DNA of 64,000 nucleotides from a virus (IMGVR_UViG_3300037258_000368:2287-66286), one strand, 5' to 3'; shown: positions 6,291 to 48,919, numbered from the stretch's first letter. Made by a program: numbers and translations. The notes: a model not told the origin generated them from the letters alone.

Positions 6291-6304
6291 GTGGAAAACT
6301 CCAA

Positions 6305-6357: not shown

Positions 6358-6368
6358 GGACAGCGGGG

Positions 6369-6872: not shown

Positions 6873-6903
6873 GTTGAAGCCCTTTGCATTTGAGACGGCG
6901 GTT

Positions 6904-7751: not shown

Positions 7752-7803
7752 GAGTGGTTCCTCTCTAAAATTCACCTGAACCCCCCATTCAGGTGCAGCG
7801 GTG

Positions 7804-8631: not shown

Positions 8632-8731
8632 TGAAATACTCGAGCGGTTGTGTCAGAAAAATTCCGGCGCCATTGGGCTGCGTGACACGGGGCCGCGGCG
8701 TGGGGTGCGTCGCGGCCCCAGATCGGCCGGA

Positions 8732-9292
8732 CTAGCTCACGCTGTAATTGCGCTGTGCGTTCTTGATGCTCAGATCGTCGCGATCGAGGGTCACCAGCGC
8801 GTAGGCGATCGTGCCGGCCGAGAGATTGGTGCCGGCTGGGACCTGCATCAGGAGCCGCGCATAACGCGGGCGCAGCGTCGACGGGAATGCCGGTGGCCAG
8901 TCGAACCGCGCGATGATGGCGTTGGCAGGGGCCAGCGCGACAGCCTGCGCCCCGGTCTCTTCGGCGGTGTACCAAGTGTCCGGCTGATAATTGCCCGCCG
9001 CGCCCAGATCGGCCGCGAGCTGGAACGCCAAGTTCCACGTCGCCGCATTGCCGGTGGCAAATGCCGTACCGACCGTGACGGCGAGCAACGGCTTCCTGAC
9101 GCCGATGCCGAAATCCGTTCCGAAGGTGGGAAAGCTGGTGCCGAAGATAATGGGCGGCGCTTCGCCGACGCCGGCGCCCAGAAGGTCGAGAGCGACGCCG
9201 CCAGGAGCGAGAACGATGGGGGCGCCCGCGGCGCCGACCATCGAGAGATTTCCCCCGATCGGCACGAAATTGAGAAGTGCGTCCGTGTACAT
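8732..9292 (-). CDS. Capsid cement protein (Bbp16-like)
   Basis: MYTDALLNF..RYARL..AGTI pattern directly after the major capsid; AAGGA RBS. Confidence 0.8.
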   Translation of the reverse strand: MYTDALLNFVPIGGNLSMVGAAGAPIVLAPGGVALDLLGAGVGEAPPIIFGTSFPTFGTDFGIGVRKPLLAVTVGTAFATGNAATWNLAFQLAADLGAAGNYQPDTWYTAEETGAQAVALAPANAIIARFDWPPAFPSTLRPRYARLLMQVPAGTNLSAGTIAYALVTLDRDDLSIKNAQRNYSVS

Positions 9293-9308
9293 GGGCGGGT
9301 TCCTTTAC

Positions 9309-9336
9309 GAAAAGAAAAAGCCGCCCGGAGGCGGCT
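9309..9336 (-). terminator. Rho-independent terminator after major capsid
   Basis: AGCCGCC-TCCG-GGCGGCT followed by TTTTCTTTTC on the minus strand. Confidence 0.75.
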
Positions 9337-9378
9337 CTTTCATTGATTGCGGGGGCGCGATGCGACGGCGCCGCGGAC

Positions 9379-9405
9379 CTTTAGGTGCTTTAGGTGCTTT
9401 AGGTG
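9379..9405. repeat. 9-bp tandem repeat x3 (ctttaggtg) spanning the capsid stop
   Basis: Minus strand reads ACC TAA AGC ACC TAA AGC ACC TAA. Confidence 0.85.
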
Positions 9406-10442
9406 ACCTGGCCTTCCGTGGTGAGCAGCTGGTCGCTGATGCCGACCTTGATGCCGCGGATGAAGTCGGTCACCCGACCCGCCGCGTCGGTCAGCGACAG
9501 CAGCACGTTGCGGTCGCGCATTCCCTGCACGTCGCACCAATGCCGCCCGGTGCGGCTCATGTACCAGACCGGCCGGATACCGGGCGCGGGCTCATCGGGC
9601 GCGTCGGTCTCGGTGATGCCGCTGGCTTCGCGGCTGAGCGTCGGCGGAAAGAGGACCGCCTCGGCGAAGAGCGCGAACAAATCCGCCGCATTCGGTCCGG
9701 CGAGGCCGGCGGCGGTCACATCGAGGTTTGCGATGCGCACGCCATAGCGCCAATCCTCGACGACGATTCCGGCTTCCTGGCGGAAATAGCTGGTGAGCGC
9801 GCGGAACGGATTGCCGAGCGCATCGAAGGCGGGCCATGTGTCGCCGAGGTTTTCCTGATTGAGGCCGGCTTTCGAGTTGCGCGGGAACAATCCCTTGATC
9901 GTCATATCGCCCCAGCAGATGAGCCAAGCGCTGAGGTTCGAGGAACCGGTGCCGCCGCCGTTGATGACGTTGGAACCGTTGGCGGCCGAGTTGCTGTCGG
10001 TGTTGTAGAACGGCGACAAGCCCATGAATTCGCCGGGCGTCGCGACCGTATTGCCATACCAGAGCGTGTTGCAGACCGTCTGCCCCATGCCCTCGATGAA
10101 GGATACATCCTCGCGATATCGGAAATTCTCGATATCGCCCGAGCGCTCGGCCAGCGTGCGATCGACCTGGCTCCAGCCGACGAGTTCGCCCAAACCAACG
10201 CGGGATTTGGCGGTCGTCGATTTGCCGAACGCGGTTCCGGCATTGATCTGGCGCCATGCACCTGCCGGGATCGAGGTACGATAGACGAATTCGTGCCCCG
10301 TCATTTCCGAGGCTTCCGCCCACGGCATGTCCTTCAGCGGGTCGTTGGTTTGGGACATCAGCTCCGCGATGCGGCGCTGTTTACCCATGGCATCGGTGCG
10401 GCTCGTCAGGTCGAGAAGGGTGGGCCATTGTCCGTTCGCCAT
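9399..10442 (-). CDS. Major capsid protein (BPP-1 Bbp17-like, HK97 fold)
   Basis: PTLLDL..IAELMSQTN..WYGN..EFMGLSP..DWRYGVRIANLD..LLTTE; GGAGG RBS; start at MANGQW. Confidence 0.93.
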   Translation of the reverse strand: MANGQWPTLLDLTSRTDAMGKQRRIAELMSQTNDPLKDMPWAEASEMTGHEFVYRTSIPAGAWRQINAGTAFGKSTTAKSRVGLGELVGWSQVDRTLAERSGDIENFRYREDVSFIEGMGQTVCNTLWYGNTVATPGEFMGLSPFYNTDSNSAANGSNVINGGGTGSSNLSAWLICWGDMTIKGLFPRNSKAGLNQENLGDTWPAFDALGNPFRALTSYFRQEAGIVVEDWRYGVRIANLDVTAAGLAGPNAADLFALFAEAVLFPPTLSREASGITETDAPDEPAPGIRPVWYMSRTGRHWCDVQGMRDRNVLLSLTDAAGRVTDFIRGIKVGISDQLLTTEGQVT

Positions 10443-10687
10443 TTTCTGCCTCCATAAAGACCGCCGCTCGCACAAGCGAGGTGAGCGGCGTTGTTGTTTT
10501 CTGGAGGTCAGCTTTTCGGGTACGCTTCACGCGCTTGGGATGTCCGAATAGCTGACCAAGCCTATTCGCCTCATTCGTGCATGCCTGGGGCGGGTTGATA
10601 GGGGCCGGCGGGACGTGTCGCGGATGGCGCGATCCTGCCGGCTCCGGTTGGGGTGCGCCGATCTGCGACGATCTTGCGACGATCCCT

Positions 10688-11566
10688 TTATTTGTTCGGG
10701 GCGGCGGGTCCCGGGCCGCTGCCGACCGTTTCGTAAAACCCGCCGTGCGCCCCGGCGGATGGGCGCCTGCCATTGTTGGGCGGCGGCTTTGGCGGATCGT
10801 GCATCGGCGCCGGCTCGTCGAAGAGACGTGCCGCGGCGTGGAATACGCGCAATATCTCGGGATGGTCGCCCGCCCCGGTCAGGTCCATTGCGCGATTGAA
10901 GGCTTCGCGGCGCGCGCTCGGTACAAGCATATCGCGCATGCGGGCGATCGCGTTCATCGCGGTCTGATGGCCGGCGCCGCCCAATTCCTCGTCGGCCATA
11001 ACTTCGGTGCGCCAGCCGCGCCGCATCTCGCCGAAGGCTTTGTGTTGGTCGGCGGCAATTCCCTCGGCGTAGCTCTGCATCGCATTGACGTGCATGTCGA
11101 CGAGCTGCTGGGCGCGCGCCTGCGGGGCGAGTTCGGTATTGCCGAGGAGCGCGGTGAATTCGTCGACGCGCTCGGGTTGCAACGTGACGCCTTCGGGCAG
11201 GGTGAAGGCTTCGTATTTGACCGGCTCGGCCGCGCCGACGACGGCGAGTGCGGCCGCCGGATCTGCTATCGGCGGATCGCCGGGCTTTGCCGCTGCCGCC
11301 GGATCGACTGCAGGCTTTGTCGCGAGCGGATCAGCGGCAGTAGCGATGAGGCTCGGCGTGTCGGTGTGGAGCCCGATGGCGGGTTTCGCCTCGCCCGGTG
11401 CGGGTGCTTCCGGGGCAGCCGGCGGCGCTTCGGCCGTCGGGGGGACGCCAGCCGCCGGCGCTGCGGCTGCCTCGGAAACGACTTCGGCCACCGCAGGGGT
11501 GGCCGATTGTTCGGGAACGACAGGGGACGCCGCCGGGGCGCCGCCGGTGTTATCTTCGGGCGGCAA
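10688..11566 (-). CDS. Capsid scaffolding protein (Bbp18-like)
   Basis: Pro/Ala-rich N-terminus, YEAFTLPEG..AQQLVD..W..DEELGG..GAGDHPE; immediately upstream of MCP; TTG start with GAGG. Confidence 0.8.
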   Translation of the reverse strand: MPPEDNTGGAPAASPVVPEQSATPAVAEVVSEAAAAPAAGVPPTAEAPPAAPEAPAPGEAKPAIGLHTDTPSLIATAADPLATKPAVDPAAAAKPGDPPIADPAAALAVVGAAEPVKYEAFTLPEGVTLQPERVDEFTALLGNTELAPQARAQQLVDMHVNAMQSYAEGIAADQHKAFGEMRRGWRTEVMADEELGGAGHQTAMNAIARMRDMLVPSARREAFNRAMDLTGAGDHPEILRVFHAAARLFDEPAPMHDPPKPPPNNGRRPSAGAHGGFYETVGSGPGPAAPNK

Positions 11567-11579
11567 TGGGGAACCTCAC

Positions 11580-11834
11580 ATGACCGATTTAGAAATGGCG
11601 CGTGCCGAAATTTCGGCGCATCTCGTCGACGTTGTTGTTCGCCTGTTCAAGCCGGGCATGAAGACGACGATCGTTGTGCGACGACCGGGCTCGCCCGAGC
11701 GAGAGTTCGTGATTACCAACGACCGGATCGACGACGTTATCGAGTGCCTTTCGCGCCGGCGCGAGGCTGGCGCTGCGGAACAGCAAGCGCCGGATCGTTC
11801 TCCCGCTCCATCAGGAAGACGCCCTCTGGCGTAA
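11580..11834 (+). CDS. Small hypothetical phage protein, antisense within the head operon
   Basis: MTDLEMARAEISAHL..LFKPGMKTTIVVRRPG..VITNDRIDDVIECLSRR. Confidence 0.6.
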   Translation: MTDLEMARAEISAHLVDVVVRLFKPGMKTTIVVRRPGSPEREFVITNDRIDDVIECLSRRREAGAAEQQAPDRSPAPSGRRPLA

Positions 11835-12162
11835 TAATCTGCCAGGATCGCTTTAGTCGTCGCGCAAGTACCTGCTGTCCGAGTTCGTACCAAGTCGCCT
11901 CGGGCTGCGGAAACCCGTTGGGTCCGCATGCAAAGCGCTCTTCATTCGGGTGGCCGGCCTCGAGGATTTCCCAACGCTCGCGCCGCCCAGCTGGCGTGCT
12001 GAAGGCGCGACGAACAATGTCTGCGATCTCTTCCCTGCGCAGCGTCGCACGGGCGCGCGCCCGCTTCAGTGAACGAGGTTCGGCCGCATTGACAGCTTCG
12101 GGCATAGCGGGGTCACCGTCGGAAGGCTCGTCCTCCGGCGTCTCGATGTCGTCATCGACCAT
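11737..12162 (-). CDS. Bbp19-like head-cluster protein
   Basis: AFSTPAGRRERWEILE..TWYELGQQ..MEREN; lies between portal and scaffold. Confidence 0.7.
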   Translation of the reverse strand: MVDDDIETPEDEPSDGDPAMPEAVNAAEPRSLKRARARATLRREEIADIVRRAFSTPAGRRERWEILEAGHPNEERFACGPNGFPQPEATWYELGQQVLARRLKRSWQIITPEGVFLMERENDPALAVPQRQPRAGAKGTR

Positions 12163-12169
12163 ATTGCGA

Positions 12170-12550
12170 TCAGGAGTCTTTCGGCTTGCGCAGTTCCGCG
12201 AGCGCGGTCCAATCGAAGCCGTCCTTGGACGACAGAAGCCCGCCGCGAGTTCTAAACGGATCTCGATCCGGCGGGGATGGTGGCGTGCTCGGTCCTGGCA
12301 TGTGCCAGTTTCCTGGGTCCGGATCGCGCACCGCGTTGTCGAGCACCTCTCGCTGTGCGATGGCTGCGGCGCCGATCAAGTTGATCTTGAAGCCGTTGTC
12401 GTAGGCCGTCAGGTGTCGCACGTCGCCGGTGCGCAGAACGATGGAGATCGACACCGCGCCTATTTCGTCGCGCGCGTAAAGGGCCGTCATCTCGTCGATA
12501 ATCGAAGCCATGCCCCGCTTGAAGCGCAGCGCGCCGTCTTCGTCTGGCAT
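12170..12550 (-). CDS. Hypothetical protein
   Basis: Coupled ORF on the operon strand. Confidence 0.65.
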   Translation of the reverse strand: MPDEDGALRFKRGMASIIDEMTALYARDEIGAVSISIVLRTGDVRHLTAYDNGFKINLIGAAAIAQREVLDNAVRDPDPGNWHMPGPSTPPSPPDRDPFRTRGGLLSSKDGFDWTALAELRKPKDS

Positions 12551-12729
12551 CAGGCGTTGCCCTGCGCCGGCATCACTGCCAGCAGTAGCGCGGCATGCGC
12601 CTCTTCGGCAGTCGCGAACGGCCCGGCGAAGAATTTCATGCCGGGTCGCATCGGAAGGATGTCAGCGCTACCCCGCTCGGCCCAGGCTTCTGGGGTGTAC
12701 CAAATGGATTTCTTGGGCCTGTCAGCCAT
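12550..12729 (-). CDS. Small hypothetical protein (MADRPKKSIWYTPEAW..)
   Basis: TAATG/TGATG coupling on both sides; GGAG RBS. Confidence 0.55.
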   Translation of the reverse strand: MADRPKKSIWYTPEAWAERGSADILPMRPGMKFFAGPFATAEEAHAALLLAVMPAQGNA

Positions 12730-13268
12730 TAGGCGGTTCTCCTCTGATCGCGGAACGCCGGCGGCAGCGCGATCCCGCCGGGCGTGATGACCGAAACCGG
12801 GCGCGTATCGCGGTGTGGACCTGGTCGGACCGGCGGGCGTAGATGCCCAGTTTTACCGGTCGCCATCGTGCGGCGCTGCTCGGCCTTGCGGTGGCACTCG
12901 CGCAAGACGCCGGCGAGCTTCAGAAATAGAGGCCGCGGATAGTGGCCGCGCAGCCAGTTGCCGGCGCGCTTGTGGCACTCGCCCATCATGTGCGCGATTT
13001 CGAGCCAGCCCGGGTCGCCCATGTCGCTCTTGAGCGCCTCGAAGCCGTGGGTGCCGGCAAAGCCGATCGGCGCACCGGCGCCGCCCGCATCATCGCGCCA
13101 ATAAGCCGCCTGCCGCGCCGCGCCCTCGATGAAGCCCAGCTCCTCGATGAGGAGCTGATAGGTCGGCCCACGCATCGGCAGGGTGGCCAGGAGATCGCAA
13201 TGCTCGGCGGCCAGTCGGAAATTCTCGGAGAGGCACGCAAAGATTTCGATCTCGGTAAGCTGGCTCAC
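12729..13268 (-). CDS. Hypothetical phage protein
   Basis: GTGA coupling; protein-like sequence. Confidence 0.7.
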   Translation of the reverse strand: MSQLTEIEIFACLSENFRLAAEHCDLLATLPMRGPTYQLLIEELGFIEGAARQAAYWRDDAGGAGAPIGFAGTHGFEALKSDMGDPGWLEIAHMMGECHKRAGNWLRGHYPRPLFLKLAGVLRECHRKAEQRRTMATGKTGHLRPPVRPGPHRDTRPVSVITPGGIALPPAFRDQRRTA

Positions 13269-14032
13269 CTGTCGCCGCCGATCCAGCGCGACGGCACGAA
13301 GGGACGCTCCTCCGGCGGCAGCGGCTGCGCGGGCAGCGGTACGAGCGGGCCGTCAGGGTCGGCGCCCAGCGCAGCGACGGGCGCATCGATGGACGCGCGA
13401 TGCTGCAGGCTCTCGATCACACGCCATTTTCTGAGCGCCTCCTGATAGCGGAACAGGCGCGCCTGTCGCGACGGGTTCCCCACCATTAGGTAGCGCTCCG
13501 GGACCATAAAGGCTTCGTTGATCTTGCGATCCACCTCGGCCAGCATTTCGGCTGTGACCGGTGGTGCCGGCTCAGGCGGCGCCATGATCATGAGCATCGC
13601 TTCGACCAGCTCCTCGATGATCCCGACCAGCATCATCTTTATCAGTTTTCCGCTCGCGTCCAGCGCATCACGACGTGCGGCGATGGGATAGCACAATGCA
13701 CAGTTCGGGTCGCCGCAGCTTATCGTCTTGCTCTCGTATGTCGGCAAAGCCGCCGTGAATATCGTTGAGCAGACACAGCGCGCGATTCCCGATGCCGGGC
13801 GCTGTATCGAGGCGCCACATTTCGGGCAAGTCATCGTCTCTCCGCGCGCCTTGGCGAGAATGGCGCGCGCCGCGAGCCAGTCTTCGCTAAAATCCCCTGG
13901 GTTTTCTTCCATTTGAGCATCCTGCTCCGGCGAAATGAGCCGAGCCAATGCCTCGTAAAGCTCCGGTGCCGCCGCGATCAGCGTGCTGGTGCTGGGCGCT
14001 CTCGCTACAGTTCTCGTCTTGCTCTCGTTCAT
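13265..14032 (-). CDS. Mosaic accessory protein (LIAAAPEL motif plus Cys clusters)
   Basis: ATGA coupling to portal; LIAAAPELYEAL..ARAILAKARG followed by CPKC and CGDPNCALC. Confidence 0.55.
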   Translation of the reverse strand: MNESKTRTVARAPSTSTLIAAAPELYEALARLISPEQDAQMEENPGDFSEDWLAARAILAKARGETMTCPKCGASIQRPASGIARCVCSTIFTAALPTYESKTISCGDPNCALCYPIAARRDALDASGKLIKMMLVGIIEELVEAMLMIMAPPEPAPPVTAEMLAEVDRKINEAFMVPERYLMVGNPSRQARLFRYQEALRKWRVIESLQHRASIDAPVAALGADPDGPLVPLPAQPLPPEERPFVPSRWIGGDR

Positions 14033-37190: not shown

Positions 37191-39983
37191 TTAATGGTGA
37201 CCGAAGAGACCACCCGATTCGGACCTTGTCGCCGTGTAGATGCCGGGAACGCCCCAAGGAACGCCCCCGCCGGGCTCATAGCCGAGCATCGTGCGGCCCG
37301 TCTCGCGCGCCAGGCGCCGGTTTGTCCGCTCCCACCAGCCGGGCGAGGCGGCATCGTAGAGGTGATACCAGACCAAATAATCGAGGGCGCCCTTCAGATA
37401 GATCAGGTTCGCGAACGGCACATGGCCGCTGGCGAACCGCGCGAGATCGGGCCACAGATGCGAGAGCGCTTTCTCGGGATGGTCCCTCAATTCGATCTTG
37501 AAATCGGTGTACATCCGATAGAGCCGATCGATATCGGACCCGATCGGCCCGACCATCGTCGCGATGCCGCCGCCGCCGAGCCGGCTCGTCTCGCCGAAAA
37601 GGAAATCGCCGTAAATCCCGAGGCCACCGCCTTGCGCCAGCGCGGCGAGCAGCGTCACCGGATTGCGGTAATCGCGCTGCGCGTTACCGGTCACAGCGTC
37701 ATTGACGGCCATCCGCAGCATACCGCCGGCGGTTGCCAGAGCGATCAGCGCGCCGATGTTGGACGCCATCTCCTTGCCCGATAGCGACAGCGCGATCTCG
37801 CGGCCCATGATCTGATTGGCCGCGGCGAGCGGCCACATCTTGAACTGCAACAGCGCCCGGGCGACCATGTAATAGGGGTCACCCGGTCGCAGACCACGCA
37901 GCGCCATCGCCTGCTCGCGCACGCCCGACGTGACGGCGCCACGGTCGGCTGCATCGTTCAGATACATCCCGAGCCGGTCGGCCATCTCCCATTGCTTTTT
38001 CTGTACCGCCGACAGGATGCGCGCAATCAGCGCCTCGCGCTGTGCGTCGGAAAGCGCCGGGTCATCGGGTGTCACGTTCGGCAGGAGGCCCTGCCGGCGC
38101 AGGAGCGCAGCGACCTCATCCGGGTCCGAGGCTATCGCATCGTGCGGCGTCACCCAGCGACGATCGCCGACGACCGCCGGGTTGGCCGCGCCGCGCACCA
38201 GATCCCATTCGTCCGGCCCGATCCCATAGCTGGTGAGAACGGTGCGCTGGTGGATCTCCATCTGCTCGAGTGGTGCATTGGCCGCGCGCCCGAGCCGATC
38301 CATCAGAACGCCTTTGACGCCGCCGGCCTGGAACCTGTCGAGCACCGTCGGGAGTCCGGTGACGCGCATGAATTGCGCCGCCCAGTAAGAGACAAAGCCC
38401 GGGACGCCAGCTCCGTGCATGCCGGCGTCACGCGCCAGCATATTGCTCCAGCCGTGCGCGTAGGCGCCGGCGTCGGCCATTGCTTCCTGTTCGACCGCGC
38501 CGCCGCGCCCGTGCACCAAGGCGCCGGTGAGGTTGCGTATCGTTTCCCAGCGTCCGACGCCATGATGCGCCATCTCCGACCCGAAGGTTGCCGGCGCCGC
38601 CGACATATGGGTGAGCGAGATTGCCCCGAGATGGGAAGCGGCCTCGATGCTCATCACTGCCTCGAAGGCTGCGGCATGGTCGGCGTTGACCGGCATGTTG
38701 AGCGAGCCATCGAGCCGCCCCATGACGTTGCGCAGCCCCTCGGCCTGGGCATCGAACCGTTGCAGCCCTTCATGGTCAGTCCTGAATTCCTCGCGCACCT
38801 TTTTGATGACGAGGTTGAGATTGGCCTCGGGATTGGTCCCGAAATAGCGCATCAGCGCGGTGCGCCGCGCGCCAGCGTCGATCGTGCGGTTGACCTGCGC
38901 CAGGAGCCCATCGCCACCGCCGAACTCGCGCATGTGGTCGAGCCAATCGCCTGAATTGTTCCAGTGCCAGATCCGCGGATGCGACACCGAACGCGCGATA
39001 TTGTGCGTACCCATGAACGCCGGCGGGATGAAACCGCCTTCATCGGCCGCCATGCCGGCCATGCCGGATTGCCGCAGATGGACGCCGCTCGATGTGGCAT
39101 CGAACCAGGAGCGCAGGAAACGCGTGCGCGCGTCGGCCATGCTCTCGCCTTCCTCGGGCACCAGGTTATTGAAGGTTTCGGCCGCGGCACGCGGCTCTTC
39201 CTTCGCTCGCCAAGCGCGGAACGCCGCGTCATGGGTGGCGCCCGGTCCCGCCGCGAGCTGCAGCTGCCGCGGATCCCAGTTGGTGTGGCTGACATAATCG
39301 GTTGCCGTGCCGATCCGGGCGCCTTCAGCGTTCTGGCGGCGCTTGATGGTGTCGACCGCCGGGTAGAGCGCATCGGCGATCGTCTGTCCGGCCGTCGATA
39401 TGGTGATCCGGGCGTCGGGCGCCCCGCCATTTCGGCGCCAGAAGGCCTCGGCGACCTCGCGTTCGAGCGAGGTCCCCTTCATTTCGCGGGCCGCGCCGAG
39501 CAGGCCCTCCTGCCGCAGGCGGTTGACCATCGCGGCGCTTGTGGCGCGGTACATGGTGTGCCACCGCGACTGGGCGTTGTCCTTCTGCTTGGCGCCGGCG
39601 ACCCAGTGCATCTGTGAGGCGATCCCGTCGGCGATCCCCAGATCCTTCGAGCCGCCGACGAGGGTATGGCCGATGCGCTGGGCAAGGTTGCGATCGGGCG
39701 CAAGCTGGCCACCCGATTCGGCCTTCGCCCGTGCGATCATCCCGACCCGACGGTCGGCATTGCGGATCGCGTCGACCAGGTCGGCGCGGGCCTTTTCCTT
39801 GATCCCCATCGCGGCGGCGCCGGCGGCCGCGACGATCGTGTCGAATTCTCCGGTGGCGCGCATCTGCTCGGCGCGGACCGCAACGTCTTCGAGGAGCTGC
39901 GCCGCCTCGGATTGCGTGATCGCGCCGCGCGCGGCGACCCGGGCGATGCAGGCTTCGATGTTTCTGCCGGTGCGTGCCATCAA
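37191..39983 (-). CDS. Internal virion (ejection) protein, T7 gp16-position
   Basis: 930 aa; LLQFKMWP..GGGLGIYGDFLF..PFANLIY..SPGWWER C-terminal pattern. Confidence 0.85.
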   Translation of the reverse strand: MMARTGRNIEACIARVAARGAITQSEAAQLLEDVAVRAEQMRATGEFDTIVAAAGAAAMGIKEKARADLVDAIRNADRRVGMIARAKAESGGQLAPDRNLAQRIGHTLVGGSKDLGIADGIASQMHWVAGAKQKDNAQSRWHTMYRATSAAMVNRLRQEGLLGAAREMKGTSLEREVAEAFWRRNGGAPDARITISTAGQTIADALYPAVDTIKRRQNAEGARIGTATDYVSHTNWDPRQLQLAAGPGATHDAAFRAWRAKEEPRAAAETFNNLVPEEGESMADARTRFLRSWFDATSSGVHLRQSGMAGMAADEGGFIPPAFMGTHNIARSVSHPRIWHWNNSGDWLDHMREFGGGDGLLAQVNRTIDAGARRTALMRYFGTNPEANLNLVIKKVREEFRTDHEGLQRFDAQAEGLRNVMGRLDGSLNMPVNADHAAAFEAVMSIEAASHLGAISLTHMSAAPATFGSEMAHHGVGRWETIRNLTGALVHGRGGAVEQEAMADAGAYAHGWSNMLARDAGMHGAGVPGFVSYWAAQFMRVTGLPTVLDRFQAGGVKGVLMDRLGRAANAPLEQMEIHQRTVLTSYGIGPDEWDLVRGAANPAVVGDRRWVTPHDAIASDPDEVAALLRRQGLLPNVTPDDPALSDAQREALIARILSAVQKKQWEMADRLGMYLNDAADRGAVTSGVREQAMALRGLRPGDPYYMVARALLQFKMWPLAAANQIMGREIALSLSGKEMASNIGALIALATAGGMLRMAVNDAVTGNAQRDYRNPVTLLAALAQGGGLGIYGDFLFGETSRLGGGGIATMVGPIGSDIDRLYRMYTDFKIELRDHPEKALSHLWPDLARFASGHVPFANLIYLKGALDYLVWYHLYDAASPGWWERTNRRLARETGRTMLGYEPGGGVPWGVPGIYTATRSESGGLFGHH

Positions 39984-42900
39984 ACCTCGCTCTCTCCGAT
40001 GCAGGCGGCGGCCTCATCGACGGCATCGCCGGTCCGGGCTTTCGCGGCGTCGATCGCCGCCTGTTCCTCCGGCAGGAGCTGGTCGCCGATCGTGTCGAGC
40101 CGCTGCAGCGCGGCGGTCAGATCGGGTTCCTGTCCCCAGAGACGCAAGAGCGCGGGATCTCGCGAGACCATCGTGCCCTCAGGGCCGATCGACGTCGTCT
40201 GCCCCGGCGCCAGGGGCGCGGTGCCGCCGGCGGCCGCCGGGGCTGCCGCCGCCGCTTGCGGTCCGGGCGGCGCATCTTCTGCGACCGGCGCCTGCTTGCC
40301 GCTGAGCGAGGCTTCAAGCGCGGCGACCTGCTGGCGCATCGGCGGGATCTTCGCCTCATCGACGAAGGTCTTGCCGATCTCGCGATTGCTCGATTCGGCG
40401 CGCAGCTCGGCGTTGCGGGCGCGCTCCTGGGCTCCCTTGAGGTAGTCAGGCAGGAGCCGCAACAAGCTGGAGGCCGAGGCGATCATGTTGGGCGCGGGGA
40501 CCATGCCGAGAGGGCGATCCTCGCCCGGCCAGAACTGGAGATAAAAATGGGGCGCATCGTCTTTTAGGGTGACGAGAAGCCCGGTAGGCCCCTTCACGAA
40601 ATGGCCTTCCGCATCGAGGGCATAGTGATTCTGTGCGGAGATCAATAGCGGGAAGCCGCCGATCTCGCCGATCTGCTGGGTCTTGCCAACATCGAGGCCC
40701 GGGTAGGTCGCGGCGACCGCCTTGTCGATCGCCGCTACAGCCTCCTCGCGTGTCGTCAGCACCTGGTCGCCGACCGTCACCTTGAAATTCTCGCCGGTGA
40801 TCTGATGGCTGCGCCCGATCGCCTCCTGCAACGCCGCTGCCGTGGCATGTTCCTTGGCGGCTTCCGTCGCGCCGCGTTGAGAGTCGATCTGGTAGCGGTA
40901 CTGCTCGCTGCGATGGGCGCTTTGCCGGCGCTCCAGCTTCTTCAAATCCTGCTTGAACTGCGCCAGCTGCATGACGCGCGGATCCGAGGTCGTCATCGCG
41001 GCGAGTTGGCTGTAGGTATCAGCTTCGCCCAGATCCTCCATTTCGCGCAGGTTCGGGTCGCCGCGGAAGAACTGCTCGATGAAACCGGCCTTCTTCGCCA
41101 TCAGGTTCCACATGAATTCGTCGAGCGAGCCCATCGTCGAATAATCGTGAATGTCGAGCGTGGGGTTGTGGTTGCCCTGCCGGAAGCCCCGCCCGTTGCG
41201 CTGCTCGTCGTCGGCCGGATACCACAAGGGATCGAGGTTATGGATTGCCCGCAGGCGCCGCTGCACGTTGACGCCGGTCCCCATCTTCTGAACCGAGCCG
41301 ACGAGGAGGCGCACCTTGCCCTCGTTCACATCGTTGAAGAGGCGCAATTTGGCGACCGGGTTCTCGAAATCCTTGATGAAGGCGATTTCGCTCGCCGGGA
41401 TGCCCATGCGGATCCACTCGCGGCGCATCCATTGATAGGAGGAAAAGACCGGCTCGCCCTTGCTGTTGCGCGTCCCGATGCCGCTATTGGCGAAGACCAG
41501 CTGCGTCGCCGGGCCACGAAATGACTCGTTCTTGAAATCTGTGGCTGGATCGTAGAATTGTGTGTCCCTGGTTTCGTCCCAAATGCGATGAACATTGGCG
41601 ATCATCATGTTGAGTTTGCTCGGGTCGCCAGCTGTCGCCGCATGCATGTCGACAAGGCGAGGATCGATCGCAGCCTTGCGGCCGTCGGAAAGGATCGAGA
41701 AGAGAATGTCATCTCCCTTTCCCGGCGGTCCCTTGCGGGTTTTGATCGCCTCGGCGCGGCGGGTAATATCGGCGCGGAAATCCTGCAGCCAATTGGTGAG
41801 CGGCGCCAGCCAGGGCGGCAGCCGGTTGTAGGCTGGCCGCGTCACATACTGCGCGAGATCCTTCGAGGTAACCACGTCCATCGCCGACCCGACCATCTTG
41901 TAGAGTTCGGGCATGTTGACGAAGGTGTCGAATCGGGTGGCATTTTTGTATTCGTTGGTAACAGTCGGTTCGAGTTTTGTCGTCGTCGTGCCGAATGCCT
42001 GTTTCCAGGCGTCGAAATGCTGGAGACCACGCTCGGCCAGCGCCTTCGGCTGGATATAGCGCGAGATCGAATAGAGTTCGCCCATCGTGTTGGTGACCGG
42101 CGTTCCCGATGCCATAACCAGCGAACGGCCGGGGTTCTGCTGATCGAGATAGCGGGACTTGGTGTAAAGATCCCACGCCATATCCGAGCCACCGCTCGAA
42201 TCGATGCCCTTCATCGGTGTGATTGTGGTGATCGGGAGTTTTCGGAACTGGTGCGCCTCATCGACGAAGAGGAAATCGACACCCAGCTCTTCGAACGTAT
42301 TGACCTCATCCTGCCGCGCTCGTGCAGCCAGCAGCTTCTGTTCGAGGCGCTGCTTCTGTGCCTGGAGCCGCTTTACGGTGAAACGGTCGTCGGGGTTGAC
42401 GCCCTTGGTGACCTTCTTCAGCTCGTCGGGGTTCTGACCAAGCTGTGCGAATGCCTCGTCGATCTCGTCGGTTGCCTCGCGGATCATCTGTGCGCTGAAT
42501 TCACCGCTGATCGGGATCAGTCCGAAGGCGGAATTGGTGATGACGACGCCATCGAGATCCTGCTGCGCGATGTTGGCGACGAACTGCTTTCTGACGCTTG
42601 TGTGGAAATTGCTGGTGTCGGCGACCATGATGCGGGCGGTCGGGTATTGCTCGTAGAATTCCTTGGCGAATTGCCCGAGCATGTGGTTCGGCACCACGAA
42701 CATCGGCTTTGCGACGAGGCCAAGCCGACGCATCTCCATCGCTGATCCGATCATGGCGCTGGTTTTGCCGGCGCCGACCGCATGCGCCATGTAGGTATTG
42801 CCGTCCTGGATGATGCGCGCGACGACGCGGGTCTGATGCGGGCGCCAGGACCAGTTGCTCGACACTCCCGGCGTCGTCAGATAGCCGCCGTCCCACTGGC

Positions 42901-45900
42901 GCAGCACGACACGGTTGAATTTGGCGTTGTAGAGTGTGGCGAGATCAACCGCCCGGGCCGGATCGGCCATTGTCCAGTCGGTGAAGGCTTCCTTCAGCTT
43001 GGAGACAACCTCCTGCGCCGCCTCCGTGGCTTCCTGGTTGACGTAAGTTGTCGTCGGCGGCCCGGGGTCGCGGTCGCGAATGACCGCCGACTTGCCGTTG
43101 AGGGCGAGTTCCAGCAACTCATGGGCGCCGAGCCGTTCGGTGCTCCACTCGGCCTGGCGCGGCCCATATTTTCCGTCTTTGTCGACCAGCCATTGCCCGA
43201 GAATTTCGGAAAATTGCAGGTTCGTGCGGCCCATGCCGATGTCGTCGAGGAAATTCAGAATGTGGCTGACCGGTATCCACGACATACCGAGGTTCATCGT
43301 GATCTCGCCCGGCGGCAATGGCGGCGGTTGCACCGCTTCGAGAGCCGACACATTGCGTTGTAGCCGCGGGTCGGCTTCGACCGCGGCACGGGCTTCCTCC
43401 AGTTTGGTGACAACATCGCCCGAGAGATAGGCATCGCGTATCACGTAGCTGTCCTGGGTGCCGGGCAGCCGCATGACCGCATCGCCTAATTCCTCGATAA
43501 CCTGGGGGCGCGTCACGCCGAGTTTCTTGGCGATGGCGTCGACATCGAGGCGACCGTGCTTATTCATCGACCACATCACGCCGTCATTGGCCGATTTCAG
43601 CTCCGGTTCGATGTAGCGGGTGAGGTTGTTCTCGAAAAAGATCCGGCGCTTCTCGGCAAGCCCAGTCTCCGCGTCGTAATCCTCGGCGGCGCTCAGGACG
43701 TAGCTCTGCTGATCCGCGCGCAGCGGGTCGAGGTTCGGCTGCTTGCGGGTCTCGATATCCGGCATGCCCGCCGGATCGAAGGTGCCCTCATCGAATTCGC
43801 GGCCGGCTTCTTTGGCGAGGCCGCGCGCTGTCTCGCGGGCACGAGCGATCTCATTCGCCTTCGATCCCATCGCGATCATGACGCCAGGATCGAAATCGCC
43901 CTCGTCAAAGTGCTCGCCGGCCGCGCGGGCTTCTTCGCGCGCCGCGGTGCGGGCGTTCTCCTGCTGTACGACATTGGGACGCCGGTATGTGAATTCGGTC
44001 TTATTGACCGGACCGTTCTTCGCAACAAAGGCGTCGTAGACCCGGCCCAACTGTGCGCGCGCAGCGGCGCCCGCCACCTCGTCGCCGGCAAGATTGGCGC
44101 GATAGACCTCGCGCATCGCATCCCGCAAGGGGACGAAATCGCGGATCAGATGGATTTCGGCGGCCGTCTTGCCGCCCTCGACGCCGGCACCGCGCTCGGG
44201 AACCGGCCGGCCGGCGCCCTGCGAATACTGCATGAGCCGGCCGTCCGGTGCGACGTAATAGGAGCCGTCCACTTTTTCGGTCGATGAGAAATCGATCGCC
44301 GCCTTTTCTTCGGGACTCAGCGGCGGGTCCATGACGCCCTCGGGCAACCGCGCCATTGCCTCGCGCAGCCGATCGGAAAGCACGGTGCCGGGTGTCTCGC
44401 CGACGGTGTATTCGTCTCTGCCAGAATTCATCTTGCCGGCGAAACTCTCGTTGCCGAGCACCATCTCGGGATGCTCGGTGAAGTAGCGGTTGACCGGCCC
44501 GGTAGCCGGTTCGCCGTTCTTGTCGGGGAGTTCGCGCAGCGCCGATTGGGTCCATTCGGGCAGCTCGTTGCCAAGATCGACCGGGGCGGCCCGCTTTTTG
44601 AAAAAGAGGATGTCGGTGGTGACCTCGGTGCCGGCATTGGCCTTGAAGGCGGTGTTCGGCAATCGCACGGCGCCGAGAAATTCCGCGCGCTCGGCAAGAA
44701 AGCGGCGTGCGTCGCCGTCCATCGAATCCATCGTGAAATGGCTCGTGATGAACGCGAGGAGGCCGCCAGGGCGCACGGAGTCGATCGATTTGGCGAAAAA
44801 GAAATTGTGGATCGAAAAGTTGCGGGCCGCATAGCGCGGATCGGCCTTGATCGCGATATTGCCGAAGGGCGGGTTGCCAATCGCCATGTCGAAATGGTCA
44901 AGCGGGACCTTGACGCGCGAGAAATCGCCCTGCCGGACCCCGCTCTCGGGGTATAGCAATTTTGCGATCTGCGCAGTGATGGCGTCGCGTTCGATGCCCT
45001 GGTAGCGCGAGGCCGCGGCGAGGTCACCCGGCATCAGACCGAGAAAATTGCCGATACCCATGCCCGGCTCGAACACCGAGCCACCCTTGAAGCCAAGGCG
45101 TTCGACCGCCTGCCACATCGAGCGGACAACCACCTCGGAAGTGTAGTGGGCGTTGAGGACGGAGGCGGCGGCGGCGCGATGCTCGTCGTCGGTGAGGATT
45201 TCTTTGAGCCGCGCACCGATCTTGTCGAGGCCGCCGCGGAAATTTCCCTTGGCATCAGGGAGAGCACCGGAGAGGCCGCCCCAGCCGACATAGCGGGCAA
45301 GGATCGCCTGCTGTTCTTTCGTCGCGGGCAAACCTGCGGCGGTCAGCGATTTGGCGAGTTCGATCGCGGCGATATTGTCGTTTGCCTTGACCCGCGGCGA
45401 GCGCGCTTCGGCGAGCGCGCCGGGTTCTATGACGTAATTTGCGCCTTTGACATCGGCATCTGGCGCGCGCTCGCCGGGTTCCCCGTTCCGCTCCCCGGCA
45501 GGTCGTCCGGTGACTCCAGGTGATCCGGGTCCGGCTTCCCCTCCGGCGGGAATGTTATCAGGGTGTCGAATACCAGCTCCCGCGCCCGCACCCTCTCCGC
45601 TGGATCCGGGTCCGGGTTCCCCTGCAGGATTTGGTTCAGCAGTTCCCGCGCCCGGCTGCTCACTTCCTTCAGGTGCTGTTGCCACTGGCCCGCGCGTTGC
45701 AGCGCCGCCACCATCTTCGGTGCCCTCTCCATTGCCGCCTGTGCGTAGGGTTCCCGGATGTTGAGTAGCATTTGCCGCGTCCTCGATTGCCCGGTCGATT
45801 TCCTCGGGCGTGGACATATTACGCGCTGGCTCGAAATCAGGATAGTGGCGCGCATTTTCGTAAAAGCCGCGGAGGTACGGTCGGATCGCCTCGCCGAAAT

Positions 45901-48900
45901 CGGCAACCATCTCATGCGCAAAATCGGCGAATTTATGTGCGCCCGCCTCGATATGATAGCCGGCGAGCGTCAATCCTGCTGCTGCGATTTCCGGGTCAAA
46001 CCCGGCATTGAGTTGCGAGCCGCCGAGTTTGGCGCGCAGGATCGCACGCGCTTTATCGGCGGCATCCTTGGTGAAGATTTTATTGCTCTCGCCGTAGCCG
46101 GCTTTTTCAGAAGCGAGCGGTCCCGCATCGGCAATACGGCGGCGGGCTTCGGCGATTGCCCTTTCGATTGTTGCCTTCTCGCTCGGCCCAACTTCGCGTT
46201 CTCGCAGTTCCTGCTCTAACGTATTGATCCGATCCTGTTCGCGGCGCGCGATGTCCGCTGGTTCGGATGTTGGGATAGCGGCGAGGCCCGGGTGTTCTGG
46301 CGAAGCAAGCGCAATCTCCCACTCGCCTTCCGTCAAATCGGTCAGACGCTGGATGCGGCTTAGATTTACCTGCGCCACGCCCTCCGGAATTGCGCCCTCT
46401 TTTACGAGGCGAGCGAGACCCGCAACAGCTTGCTGCGGCGTGACCTCTCCATTCAGGGCGTCGACCGCCCACTTGTTCGCTGATCTTTTCCCCGGATCTT
46501 CGAAATCCGCATACTCGTAGCGCGGTGTGACGCCTTCGGGCGCGATCTTGTATTCGGGATGCGCGTCGCGATCGATGCTCAGTTTCACCCCGTCGCGCGT
46601 CGGGGTCATGCCGACCGGCTCGGTCGTGCGCACGCCATTTTCCACGGTCGAGCGCACGCCGCGCTCGTCTTCGTAAAGGGTCTGGCCGAGAGAATTTTTG
46701 CCGATCTCTTTCGGCTCAGGCCGCGGAGCCCGTACCGCGGCTCCCGTGACGAATGACGGCAGCACGTATTTCGTGCCGGCGGGCGGTTCCATGACCTGCG
46801 GTGTCGGCGCTTTTGGCTTGGGCGGCGCCTTCGCCTTCCCTTCTGCTTCGCCTTCCGGGGGTTCCGGCGGCGCCGGCGGTGGCGGTGGCTTCGCTGCCTC
46901 GGCTTCGGGCTCGGGCGGCCCATAGATTTCGGCGGTCGCCTCGCGCAACTCCTCGGGCGGCACGCCGGCGACAAAGCCGTCGCGGCGCATCTCGGCTTGC
47001 TTCGCCGCGATCTCGGCCGGCGTCGGCGCTCGACCGTCCGGTGTCGGGAAGAACGCCTCGGTATCGACGGGTCGGCCATCGGCCAATTCCGCGACGCTGG
47101 CGCTGATCGCGGCGTGCTGGGTCTGCGCGTCGGCGTGGACGATCGGCGCGGCGGCAGCGGCTTTTCGTATCTCGTCCTCGAAGGTTATGCCGAGCCGTTC
47201 TTGTGCGGCTATGAAGGCGGCCTCGTTTTCTGGATTGTGGAAAAACGGAATTTGCCCGCCGATCGATTCCACACCGCTTTGTCGGGCGTATTCCTCGAAA
47301 AACTCTTCCTCGGTGACGCCCCGCGTCGGGATGCCCCGCTTTTCGCCGATCTCCTGCGCTTCTGCGTCGGGCTGCCACATGCGGGTTGTGGTCGACTCGG
47401 CTGCCGGCGAGCGCCGGATCGCCATCTCTGTCGAGACCTTTTCGGAGTGGCCTTGGGCGAGCAGGTAGGCTTTGACCTGTTCCTGCTCCGGGGTCAGCGG
47501 TACGGTCTCGGCGGCCGGGAGGGGGGGTCCACCCGCAGTCATGCTTGCCCGCCACTCCGCGGCTTGCCGCTCGAAATCCGCGACATCGTTGGACTCGATG
47601 ACGGTGCGCTGGCCGTTGATCTCGATGGTCGTGCGGAAGGATCTCGCCGGCGGGGCTGGTTCCGGTGCGGGCGGCGTGGTGGCCGGCGCTCCTTGGCGAG
47701 CATTCTTCCAAGCGTTGAATTCCGTCATATTGTCCATCGACGGAATACCGAGCGCTATCCTGGCCTCACGCACGAATTGAGCTGCGGCCTGTCGTTCCGA
47801 GTCGCCATTGGCACGCGCAACTGCCCGCACTTGATCGAGCCGGGGACCAAGTGCCTCCGCAATTTGGCTAGCGGTTTTGCCTTCGGCAGCAAGTCCTTCA
47901 ATGTTGCCAACGATATTGAGCCGGGTTGCTGTTGCATAAGAGCGCGCAACGTTCTCACGAACGAGATCGGCAACGGGGCCTGTGCCCGCCGGGATCACAG
48001 GCTGGCGGACCGCAGCAACGATGGGCGGCGGGGCGCCAGACGGGGGAGGAGGCGGCGCTCCTCCTGGCGGCGCTCCTCCTGGCGGCGCTCCTCCTCCTGG
48101 CGGCGCTGGCGGCGGCGCCGGCGCCCGCGCGACGTGCCAAAGATCCTTGATCGGTCCGGTGATCCCGGCATGGGTGAGCGCGGCCAGGCCGGCGCCCATC
48201 GCAGTGTCGAGGAGCGCCTCGCGCAAACCGTAGTCGCTGGCTTCCTCTTGGCCGAGGCCGTACTGCAGCGCGGCGACCGGCGCCATCGCCAGCGCGCCGC
48301 TTGCCGCACCGGCGCCCAGCCGCGCGACGGTGCGTCCGATGATCCCGGCCCCGGTCCGGGCCATGATCGCCTCTTCGCCGATGCCCGGCACAAAGATCGT
48401 GGCGGCCCGCAGCGGGTCGAGCATGAAGCCGAGCGAGCCGACGGCAAAATTGGTCGGCCAGGAATGAGCGTTTTCGAAGCGAGCGGTCACGTTGTCGCGT
48501 TCGATTTCCTCGCGCTTTGCTTCACCGATCAGCTTGGCGACCGCCTCGGGCAGCGGACCATCGCCAAGCGAGACCGGTTTGCCGTCATTGCCGAGTGGGG
48601 CGTAACGCTGCTGGTATTCCTCGTGCGGTAGCATCGGTGTCGGCTCGGAGCCGGGCGGCGGCATCTGGTCCGTGGTGCCAAAGGGCGCCGCGGCTTCCTC
48701 CTGCTCTCGGGTCATGCCGTAGAGCATCTGCGGAAGGATGCCGCTGCCCCGGTAGAGGCCTTGTGTCGCGACGCGGCCTGCCGAACGCAGGGTCGAACCG
48801 ACCTGCTCGCCGATCGACTCGCCGGCGGTCGAGGGGATGTCCTGGTAGGCGATATCCGCGGCCGCTTCGGGATCTTCGACCGGTTTCCCGTCCGGGATGA

Positions 48901-48919
48901 TATCGAAACCGCTCATCAA
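39980..48919 (-). CDS. Giant polyvalent ejection protein with DarB-like N6-adenine methyltransferase and SF2/SNF2 helicase
   Basis: MTase FEPGMGIGNF and GNPPF; helicase AVGAGKT, VDEAH, SGTPVTN, GTGVNVQ, QRNGRGFRQGN; ejection-protein-like termini. Confidence 0.93.
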   Translation of the reverse strand: MMSGFDIIPDGKPVEDPEAAADIAYQDIPSTAGESIGEQVGSTLRSAGRVATQGLYRGSGILPQMLYGMTREQEEAAAPFGTTDQMPPPGSEPTPMLPHEEYQQRYAPLGNDGKPVSLGDGPLPEAVAKLIGEAKREEIERDNVTARFENAHSWPTNFAVGSLGFMLDPLRAATIFVPGIGEEAIMARTGAGIIGRTVARLGAGAASGALAMAPVAALQYGLGQEEASDYGLREALLDTAMGAGLAALTHAGITGPIKDLWHVARAPAPPPAPPGGGAPPGGAPPGGAPPPPPSGAPPPIVAAVRQPVIPAGTGPVADLVRENVARSYATATRLNIVGNIEGLAAEGKTASQIAEALGPRLDQVRAVARANGDSERQAAAQFVREARIALGIPSMDNMTEFNAWKNARQGAPATTPPAPEPAPPARSFRTTIEINGQRTVIESNDVADFERQAAEWRASMTAGGPPLPAAETVPLTPEQEQVKAYLLAQGHSEKVSTEMAIRRSPAAESTTTRMWQPDAEAQEIGEKRGIPTRGVTEEEFFEEYARQSGVESIGGQIPFFHNPENEAAFIAAQERLGITFEDEIRKAAAAAPIVHADAQTQHAAISASVAELADGRPVDTEAFFPTPDGRAPTPAEIAAKQAEMRRDGFVAGVPPEELREATAEIYGPPEPEAEAAKPPPPPAPPEPPEGEAEGKAKAPPKPKAPTPQVMEPPAGTKYVLPSFVTGAAVRAPRPEPKEIGKNSLGQTLYEDERGVRSTVENGVRTTEPVGMTPTRDGVKLSIDRDAHPEYKIAPEGVTPRYEYADFEDPGKRSANKWAVDALNGEVTPQQAVAGLARLVKEGAIPEGVAQVNLSRIQRLTDLTEGEWEIALASPEHPGLAAIPTSEPADIARREQDRINTLEQELREREVGPSEKATIERAIAEARRRIADAGPLASEKAGYGESNKIFTKDAADKARAILRAKLGGSQLNAGFDPEIAAAGLTLAGYHIEAGAHKFADFAHEMVADFGEAIRPYLRGFYENARHYPDFEPARNMSTPEEIDRAIEDAANATQHPGTLRTGGNGEGTEDGGGAATRGPVATAPEGSEQPGAGTAEPNPAGEPGPGSSGEGAGAGAGIRHPDNIPAGGEAGPGSPGVTGRPAGERNGEPGERAPDADVKGANYVIEPGALAEARSPRVKANDNIAAIELAKSLTAAGLPATKEQQAILARYVGWGGLSGALPDAKGNFRGGLDKIGARLKEILTDDEHRAAAASVLNAHYTSEVVVRSMWQAVERLGFKGGSVFEPGMGIGNFLGLMPGDLAAASRYQGIERDAITAQIAKLLYPESGVRQGDFSRVKVPLDHFDMAIGNPPFGNIAIKADPRYAARNFSIHNFFFAKSIDSVRPGGLLAFITSHFTMDSMDGDARRFLAERAEFLGAVRLPNTAFKANAGTEVTTDILFFKKRAAPVDLGNELPEWTQSALRELPDKNGEPATGPVNRYFTEHPEMVLGNESFAGKMNSGRDEYTVGETPGTVLSDRLREAMARLPEGVMDPPLSPEEKAAIDFSSTEKVDGSYYVAPDGRLMQYSQGAGRPVPERGAGVEGGKTAAEIHLIRDFVPLRDAMREVYRANLAGDEVAGAAARAQLGRVYDAFVAKNGPVNKTEFTYRRPNVVQQENARTAAREEARAAGEHFDEGDFDPGVMIAMGSKANEIARARETARGLAKEAGREFDEGTFDPAGMPDIETRKQPNLDPLRADQQSYVLSAAEDYDAETGLAEKRRIFFENNLTRYIEPELKSANDGVMWSMNKHGRLDVDAIAKKLGVTRPQVIEELGDAVMRLPGTQDSYVIRDAYLSGDVVTKLEEARAAVEADPRLQRNVSALEAVQPPPLPPGEITMNLGMSWIPVSHILNFLDDIGMGRTNLQFSEILGQWLVDKDGKYGPRQAEWSTERLGAHELLELALNGKSAVIRDRDPGPPTTTYVNQEATEAAQEVVSKLKEAFTDWTMADPARAVDLATLYNAKFNRVVLRQWDGGYLTTPGVSSNWSWRPHQTRVVARIIQDGNTYMAHAVGAGKTSAMIGSAMEMRRLGLVAKPMFVVPNHMLGQFAKEFYEQYPTARIMVADTSNFHTSVRKQFVANIAQQDLDGVVITNSAFGLIPISGEFSAQMIREATDEIDEAFAQLGQNPDELKKVTKGVNPDDRFTVKRLQAQKQRLEQKLLAARARQDEVNTFEELGVDFLFVDEAHQFRKLPITTITPMKGIDSSGGSDMAWDLYTKSRYLDQQNPGRSLVMASGTPVTNTMGELYSISRYIQPKALAERGLQHFDAWKQAFGTTTTKLEPTVTNEYKNATRFDTFVNMPELYKMVGSAMDVVTSKDLAQYVTRPAYNRLPPWLAPLTNWLQDFRADITRRAEAIKTRKGPPGKGDDILFSILSDGRKAAIDPRLVDMHAATAGDPSKLNMMIANVHRIWDETRDTQFYDPATDFKNESFRGPATQLVFANSGIGTRNSKGEPVFSSYQWMRREWIRMGIPASEIAFIKDFENPVAKLRLFNDVNEGKVRLLVGSVQKMGTGVNVQRRLRAIHNLDPLWYPADDEQRNGRGFRQGNHNPTLDIHDYSTMGSLDEFMWNLMAKKAGFIEQFFRGDPNLREMEDLGEADTYSQLAAMTTSDPRVMQLAQFKQDLKKLERRQSAHRSEQYRYQIDSQRGATEAAKEHATAAALQEAIGRSHQITGENFKVTVGDQVLTTREEAVAAIDKAVAATYPGLDVGKTQQIGEIGGFPLLISAQNHYALDAEGHFVKGPTGLLVTLKDDAPHFYLQFWPGEDRPLGMVPAPNMIASASSLLRLLPDYLKGAQERARNAELRAESSNREIGKTFVDEAKIPPMRQQVAALEASLSGKQAPVAEDAPPGPQAAAAAPAAAGGTAPLAPGQTTSIGPEGTMVSRDPALLRLWGQEPDLTAALQRLDTIGDQLLPEEQAAIDAAKARTGDAVDEAAACIGESEV
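45427..45771 (-). CDS. Nested alternative-frame gene, TnpV-like helical protein (114 aa)
   Basis: GAGGA-8nt-ATG; amphipathic helical sequence; host frame is low-complexity over the same interval. Confidence 0.65.
   Translation of the reverse strand: MLLNIREPYAQAAMERAPKMVAALQRAGQWQQHLKEVSSRARELLNQILQGNPDPDPAERVRARELVFDTLITFPPEGKPDPDHLESPDDLPGSGTGNPASARQMPMSKAQITS

Follow-up and report, generated by a model that had tools for sequence, protein, structure and literature searches.

The virus record from which this DNA was taken is complete (66,286 bp, with direct terminal repeats), and the window, that is, the whole stretch of 64,000 nucleotides that was analysed, covers most of it. The minus strand of the window carries a giant gene for a DarB-like polyvalent protein, and inside it, in another frame of the same strand, lies a candidate small gene resembling tnpV of mobile elements. 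The features considered below are the following, with positions counted from the first nucleotide of the window.

48919..39980, minus strand: DarB-like polyvalent methylase/SF2-helicase virion protein, 2,979 codons (phrog_10089, E 0)
45788..46171, minus strand: conserved domain just upstream of the linker, residues 917-1044 of the giant protein (phrog_938, E 1.9e-26)
45784-45780, minus strand: Shine-Dalgarno-like GAGGA, followed by an 8-nt spacer (45779-45772) and the nested ATG
45771..45427, minus strand: nested tnpV-like ORF, 114 codons plus TAG, frame +1 of the giant gene
45559..45756, minus strand: predicted four-helix core of the nested protein, residues 6-71 (AlphaFold2 with alignment A5)
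45464..45787, minus strand: low-complexity linker, residues 1045-1152 of the giant protein, the host-frame reading over the nested gene
44900..45463, minus strand: N-terminal part of the methylase region, the anchor for collecting relatives and the query for alignment A4

The giant protein has the organization of the DarB-like family. An N6-adenine methylase module is followed by an SF2/SNF2 helicase in one polypeptide, and the gene belongs to a virion module, its neighbors on the same strand encoding internal virion proteins and a virion structural protein. The match to PHROG 10089 ('DarB-like antirestriction', E 0) spans residues 1082-2886, whereas the individual Pfam domains are more narrowly placed, the Eco57I methylase at about residues 1341-1411 and ResIII, SNF2 (SNF2-rel) and Helicase_C at residues 2024-2582. 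Both flanks of the linker resemble those of the closest relative, P0004: the domain at residues 917-1044 is 88% identical to it, and identity from residue 1153 on is 77%. Between these flanks, 67% of residues 1045-1152 are Gly, Pro, Glu, or Ala, in agreement with the Gly/Pro/Glu low-complexity linker described in the original prediction. The possibility that the linker is an insertion peculiar to the source phage was considered and rejected, since all 101 giant homologues that were measured have a spacer of 65-750 aa at this site, which in most of them is of low complexity and 85-130 aa long.

The nested ORF extends from the ATG at 45771-45769 to the TAG at 45429-45427 on the minus strand. It lies as a whole inside the larger gene, on the same strand but in frame +1 of the 2,979-codon ORF, and both frames are open, as the original prediction had it. 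The minus-strand sequence in front of it reads exactly as reported, GAGGA-8nt-ATG, and the peptide quoted earlier is identical to the program translation (P0001, 114 aa). Its stop codon is located 34 nt inside the conserved methylase region, which starts at residue 1153 (position 45463), so that the ORF does end at the beginning of that region. The expectation that gene callers would miss such an ORF is borne out by the protein collection, where P0001 is missing and the giant protein is present, and by the named phage records discussed below, which annotate the giant gene alone. A promoter scan around the nested ORF detected no sites. The AlphaFold2 model of P0001, made with an alignment of 78 sequences of the nested family (A5), has four predicted helices at residues 6-16, 18-27, 30-50, and 57-71, with a mean pLDDT of 77 and values of about 87-93 over residues 11-70, and a disordered Pro/Asp-rich tail. 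Residues P18, L24, G28, A41, E65, and F74 of P0001 are conserved in the family.

In the source genome taken alone, the length of the nested ORF is within chance. The giant gene has a GC content of 64% and contains other stop-free off-frame runs of 201 and 192 codons in frame +1 and of 349 and 298 codons in frame +2, and the nested region was still open in 32% of 500 synonymous-codon shuffles. As judged from sequence comparisons, it is the inverted codon signature, the existence of homologues, and the in-frame and positional conservation in relatives that go beyond chance. At codon positions 1, 2, and 3 the nested frame has GC contents of.70/.46/.81 over 45427-45771, similar to the.68/.49/.75 of the whole giant gene, whereas the host frame has.80/.70/.46; the host-frame GC3 over the linker is thus 0.46, versus 0.75 gene-wide.

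A phmmer search with P0001 against 1.84 billion representatives yielded 35 matches at E<=1e-3, of which six reach E<=1e-10; the best one (111 aa, E 7e-26) is 56% identical end to end. The lack of homologues, which the original prediction had named among the findings that would refute it, was therefore not encountered. Nearly all matches are proteins of 77-160 aa aligned from about their own residue 3, and several of them share similar C-terminal ends. None of the 35 is a DarB-like giant, which rules out the reading that P0001 is an in-frame domain of the giant protein displaced by two compensating frameshifts; moreover, the relatives are equally out-of-frame. Standalone relatives of the nested branch were found in bacterial MAGs, one of them adjoining a tyrosine integrase. 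Other searches were negative: tblastn with P0001 gave a best E-value of 0.09 among GenBank phages, which is at chance level, and nothing among plasmids; tblastn with the copy from locus L030 gave nothing among phages; and related-locus searches returned nothing for P0123 and P0126 in viral contigs and for P0004 in genome contigs.

Assignment to the TnpV family depends on profiles rather than on the single sequence. P0001 itself has no match to Pfam TnpV (PF14198; gathering score 27 bits) at E<=10, and none among the PHROGs. In the P0001 family, 19 of the 34 members match Pfam TnpV at E<=1 (best 1e-4), below the gathering score, and the nested and related copies score 14.8-26.5 bits (15-26.5 for the family; cut-off 27). 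The hhalign comparison of A5 with an alignment of 19 canonical TnpV proteins (A6) yielded a probability of 91.5% and an E-value of 8.4e-7 over 74 columns that include the entire helical core, and the iterated HMM of the nested family matches the bona fide TnpV of an AT-rich phage contig (L002) at E 1.7e-16. Like TnpV proteins, P0001 is small and helical (114 aa, four predicted helices) and carries the core motifs. From these profiles the nested family is demonstrably a remote branch of TnpV. The likeness noted in the original prediction thus stands as a remote relationship, and bona fide TnpV proteins are likewise nested in other elements; of the two kinds of search it had proposed, the profile-profile comparison was positive, but the fold search with the P0001 model found nothing significant (best E 3.6 in PDB and 0.41 in BFVD). 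In the aligned sequences, recurring motifs of the host linker, for example D-x-G-A-G-A-x-D-V and R-D-x-D-R-V-P-A-G-G, prove to be the conserved TnpV motifs spelled one base out of register, and the odd conservation of these linker motifs would be explained as a shadow of the TnpV frame.

Relatives of the locus were gathered solely through the N-terminus of the methylase (A4), and therefore the nested frame had no part in their selection. The viral set consists of the best 80 of 174 matches and the bacterial set of the best 80 of at least 597 genomic matches; since both sets include close relatives, the counts given here do not represent independent events. An HMM constructed from the small-protein phmmer matches without P0001 recognizes the ORF of the window at E 5e-30. 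The same HMM matched 43 of the 80 viral loci (best 80 of 174), always on the same strand and in frame +1, with the host frame open throughout, and these matches end between -118 and +140 nt from the methylase start. The original prediction had proposed to look for the same nested frame upstream of other DarB-like methylases, and with the iterated HMM it was found in 69 of the 80 viral loci (best 80 of 174), there being no matches in other frames, strands, or places. In the 11 viral loci without an HMM match, frame +1 is likewise open at this place, over 98-167 codons. In a positional control, the 270 nt 5' of the methylase start were stop-free in frame +1 in 49 of the 80 viral loci, in frame +2 in none, and in the host frame in all 80, whereas in 20 other windows along the gene frame +1 was stop-free in 0-16%. 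Unannotated nested ORFs of this kind (E about 1e-14 with the iterated HMM) are present in Burkholderia phage Bcep22 (gp75; L085, 1802-2212), Ralstonia phage Gervaise (gp28), and Pseudomonas phage Itty13 (L088, 1836-2216). A search of P1 darB, the archetypal gene, for a nested TnpV-like frame found no match, and the idea that this gene carries a nested copy was rejected.

The bacterial loci come from Pseudomonadota, Bacillota, Planctomycetota, and others. The nested frame was matched in 52 of the 80 (best 80 of at least 597), in all cases in frame +1; among the 28 without a match, three lack upstream DNA. For 25 of the 52 nested bacterial copies, canonical TnpV is the best match, and their genomes have a GC content of 34-59%. 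At two loci, L090 and L091, giant methylase-SNF2 ORFs contain bona fide TnpV genes in their frame +1 (137.6 and 141.4 bits; cut-off 27), so that with these two and the 25 bacterial loci the setting of P0001 is also that of bona fide members of the family. A related arrangement is found in L002, where a standalone gene for a bona fide TnpV (130 bits) immediately precedes an LPD16-methylase-helicase gene, overlapping the first possible start of the latter by at most 73 nt, again in the +1 relation. Comparison of these sequences establishes the two-frame layout as common to many phages and to bacterial mobile elements across phyla. Its retention in relatives argues that the nested ORF is a real gene missed by annotation pipelines.

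Annotation of such loci is inconsistent. The phage records contain the giant gene only, and the RefSeq record of a Monoglobus plasmid contains an annotated TnpV together with a late-started giant gene, the giant ORF being called only from 3 kb downstream.

Constraint on the two frames was compared in 31 distinct strong copies (E<1e-12), using alignment columns with under 20% gaps. Pairwise amino-acid identity averages 39% for the nested frame, 27% for the host frame, and 30% for the third frame, and the nested identity exceeds the host identity in 453 of the 465 pairs. Nucleotide diversity is lowest at the second position of nested codons, which is the third position of host codons. For a substitution test, 20 disjoint pairs with 60-98.5% nucleotide identity were used. 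Of the nucleotide differences, 418 alter the host residue but leave the nested one unchanged and 230 do the opposite, against mutational opportunities of 7,521 and 9,894, respectively; the resulting rate ratio of about 2.4 means that the nested frame is spared, and the nested-silent class is the larger one in 19 of the 20 pairs, with one tie. The test for frame-specific selection suggested beforehand therefore came out in favor of the nested gene across pairs of relatives; a search for DNA-level relatives close enough for a selection test on the source phage's own copy found none. GC3 averages 0.79 for the nested frame, whereas host sequence averages 0.38 within the overlap and 0.72 downstream of it, and the codon choice of the nested frame is the better fit to the phage in 52 of 63 distinct loci. 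These comparative data reveal that selection keeps both frames open and constrains the nested frame more strongly, that codon usage in the nested frame is that of the genome, and that the host reading is a fast-evolving spacer.

Translation start signals point in the same direction. Of 58 distinct nested starts, 40 have an SD-like motif in front of them and 49 are ATG codons; the motif is found at 9.8% of the other candidate starts and at 20.9% of the local positions. In the Bacillota, AAAGGAG-N7-9-ATG was detected in 18 of 22 distinct copies, a count that is descriptive only, because the choice of starts favored SD-bearing candidates. Both the start codon and the putative ribosome-binding motif of the nested ORF are conserved among the aligned copies. 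Together with the homologues, the layout in relatives, the substitution asymmetry, and the codon usage, the enrichment of SD motifs upholds the original claim of a real second coding frame as against a chance ORF.

The alternatives differ in what they make of these data. If the ORF had arisen by chance and its similarity to TnpV were spurious, reflecting the low-complexity composition of the host linker, the unremarkable ORF statistics of the single genome would be accounted for. However, homologues exist as standalone genes without an overlapping ORF (L003, L004, L002, and L093), HMM matches are confined to frame +1 and to one position in a six-frame translation of roughly 1 Mb, and the layout is also found in genomes with 34-47% GC, where long off-frame ORFs are rare; the comparative data effectively refute this reading. 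Another explanation retains the relationship to TnpV but regards the frame as a fossil: tnpV would have been swallowed when the giant gene was formed and would no longer be translated here, staying open through inertia and GC-richness. Consistent with this, off-frame ORFs of such length do arise by chance in a GC-rich giant gene, and P0001 deviates at several positions that are conserved in the family, to whose members it is 13-57% identical. Yet its start codon, SD sequence, full length, and stop position are intact and family-like, purifying selection in the relatives acts more strongly on the nested than on the host frame, an open frame +1 is far commoner at the nested place than elsewhere, and the pattern persists over divergences sufficient for a fossil to decay. 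We regard the loss of translation as improbable.

A third possibility is that the TnpV-like sequence is translated, but as a product of programmed +1 frameshifting from the giant frame, by which the upstream domains would be fused to TnpV in addition to the full-length protein. The frame relation, which is always +1, agrees with this, and in phage PBC5 the TnpV-like sequence is in frame with the C-terminus of the upstream gene, the methylase frame being separate, although the latter case may be due to a 1-nt error or mutation in an old record. The N-terminal part of the family is less compatible with it. An ATG or GTG is located at the family N-terminus, SD motifs are enriched there, the AAAGGAG-N7-9-ATG signals of the Bacillota copies are strong, standalone homologues start at the same residue, and at many loci frame +1 has a stop about 7-37 codons upstream of the nested start. 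Frameshifting as the source of the product thus seems highly improbable.

The explanation that we favor, with a probability of about 0.85, is that 45771..45427 is a genuine protein-coding gene under selection, which belongs to a remote branch of TnpV and is contained entirely in the DarB-like gene. Ribosomes would initiate internally on the mRNA of the giant gene, at GAGGA-N8-ATG, to make a protein of about 12 kDa, which would consist of a four-helix core and a Pro/Asp-rich tail. Those that started at the giant gene's own initiation codon would read the overlap as a flexible Gly/Pro/Glu linker from the upstream domain to the methylase module. We suggest that ancestrally tnpV stood just upstream of a methylase-helicase gene, as in L002, and that upstream polyvalent modules were later fused to the methylase by reading across tnpV in the other frame. 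The original prediction had described the TnpV-like gene as overprinted on the giant gene. From the codon usage, the substitution asymmetry, and the occurrence of standalone TnpV elsewhere, the direction is probably the reverse: the TnpV frame looks older, and the host linker would be the novelty laid over it.

The function of the small protein is a more tentative matter. Its constant linkage to the methylase-helicase module suggests that it could be a co-expressed partner of this module, as the original prediction had imagined, and we consider this possible, at somewhat less than even odds; candidate roles might be a helper in assembly or packaging or, within the producing cell, a brake on the enzyme. 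A complex prediction for nested residues 1-80 with residues 1153-2020 of the giant protein gave a score of 0.00, which weighs neither way. A bolder version, to which we give only about one chance in three or slightly less, makes TnpV an obligate small subunit of the DarB-like methylase-helicases, or their safety catch, the linker having come from read-through of an ancestral tnpV, with one mRNA serving both proteins; the arrangement would predate the split between the carrier elements of Bacillota and Pseudomonadota and have been retained ever since. Were it true, this would provide the first function for TnpV, and few long same-strand overlaps in prokaryotic mobile elements would be as widely conserved as this pair.

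Bacteria and phages have few long same-strand gene overlaps that are conserved at great evolutionary distance, and annotation systematically removes them. Here, a gene of about 100 codons would be hidden in very many sequences of phages, plasmids, and integrative elements, where pipelines either drop the nested gene or shorten the giant gene to fit. The layout ties TnpV to the DarB-like anti-restriction machinery, a link that is directly testable, and the linker may be a clear natural example of a new protein segment obtained by overprinting an existing gene.

Among known systems, the small protein is closest to TnpV of the Tn4451/Tn4453-type clostridial transposons (PF14198). Both are small (about 110-130 aa), all-helical proteins of mobile elements, and they share the core pattern G-x-L-x-x-H-L ... 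A-E-E-x-V-x-x-x-L-I. P0001 differs in its Pro/Asp-rich tail (EPPDDLP-like), which is absent from the canonical alignment, and in falling below the Pfam threshold. The settings are also different: classical TnpV is encoded beside a large serine recombinase (L093, L094, and the plasmid entries), whereas P0001 is encoded inside another gene. One paper states that TnpV was 'postulated to be involved in excision', from its likeness to lambda Xis (PMC3158075). The host protein resembles P1 DarB and the DarB-like polyvalent proteins (Iyer et al. 2017, PMC5512222) in its pair of methylase and SF2/SNF2 helicase and in its place in a virion-protein module, but P1 darB is without the TnpV-like frame. The main text of the polyvalent-protein paper (PMC5512222) does not contain the words 'TnpV', 'overlapping', 'frameshift', or 'linker'. 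A literature search, mostly outside subscription journals and supplements, returned no description of tnpV nested in a DarB-like gene.

Embedded out-of-frame genes are themselves a known kind, represented by Rz1 of phage lambda inside Rz (frame +1) and by comS inside srfAB. As in these pairs, a complete small gene with its own start, here a predicted one, is contained in a larger gene on the same strand in another frame. The present case differs from them in that the embedded gene belongs to a widespread and probably older family that also occurs standalone, in that the host reading is a low-complexity linker, and in that the layout is conserved across bacterial phyla. Thus the kind of embedded gene, the TnpV family, and the DarB-like polyvalent proteins are all known, and what appears to be new, from the literature searched, is the nested pair formed by tnpV and the DarB-like gene.

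The giant DarB-like methylase-helicase gene lies in a tightly coupled late operon. At its TTG start there is a 4-nt overlap with the stop codon of the internal-virion-protein gene upstream (window 48916-48919), and at its own stop codon a 4-nt overlap with the start of the virion structural gene that follows (window 39980-39983).

The linker of the giant protein, in whose coding region the TnpV-like ORF is nested, was compared in the host frame with that of the closest relative, P0004. Identity there is 60.6%, compared with 88% in the flanking domains. In P0004, an additional, helical-looking segment of about 80 amino acids (residues ~847-930) also separates the linker from the start of the methylase; this segment is absent from the window protein.

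A second low-complexity stretch of the giant gene, consisting of Ala/Pro/Gly repeats with GC content up to 0.76, is observed at window 48000-48300 (giant-protein residues ~265-300). Long antisense and off-frame ORFs occur in this region, for example the 544-codon ORF at 46997..48631 on the plus strand. The sliding-window control, which reached at most ~2.7 kb in the 5' direction from the methylase start, identified no second conserved off-frame ORF within that range; the stretch at 48000-48300 lies at the edge of this control, since it is located ~2.5-2.8 kb upstream of the methylase start.

In the record of Sinorhizobium phage PBC5 (NC_003324.1, locus 3001-5300), the DarB-like gene is split into two annotated CDS, gp22 and gp21, separated by a gap of ~1.6 kb without annotation. 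The TnpV-like sequence shares its frame with the C-terminus of gp22 (aa 1120-1182, with the stop at 3633), the methylase frame stays open from 3060 onward, and a frame change of one base is found immediately ahead of the nested start. This change could reflect an error in the sequencing behind an old record, or the split could be natural. In Pseudomonas phage Itty13 (NC_070969.1), an ORF of >1,720 codons matches the DarB-like gene; three 'hypothetical protein' CDS are annotated on the strand opposite to it, and the region seems to have been annotated on the wrong strand.

Monoglobus pectinilyticus plasmid NZ_OY725736.1 (locus 6160-13839) contains a 2,559-codon ORF with its first start at 6175, and an annotated 'TnpV protein' (7022-7354) lies inside this ORF in frame +1. 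In the PLSDB gene table, which leaves out pseudogenes, the 'SNF2-related protein' begins only at 9271, and ~3 kb of the giant ORF has no listed gene.

Finally, in two IMG/VR contigs (L093 and L094) and three plasmid matches (H31-H33), a bona fide TnpV gene is located directly 3' of, and slightly overlaps, the gene for a large serine recombinase (Resolvase, Recombinase and Zn ribbon domains, with or without DUF4368). TnpV genes are thus recurrently paired with two kinds of partner: serine recombinases as well as methylase-helicases.
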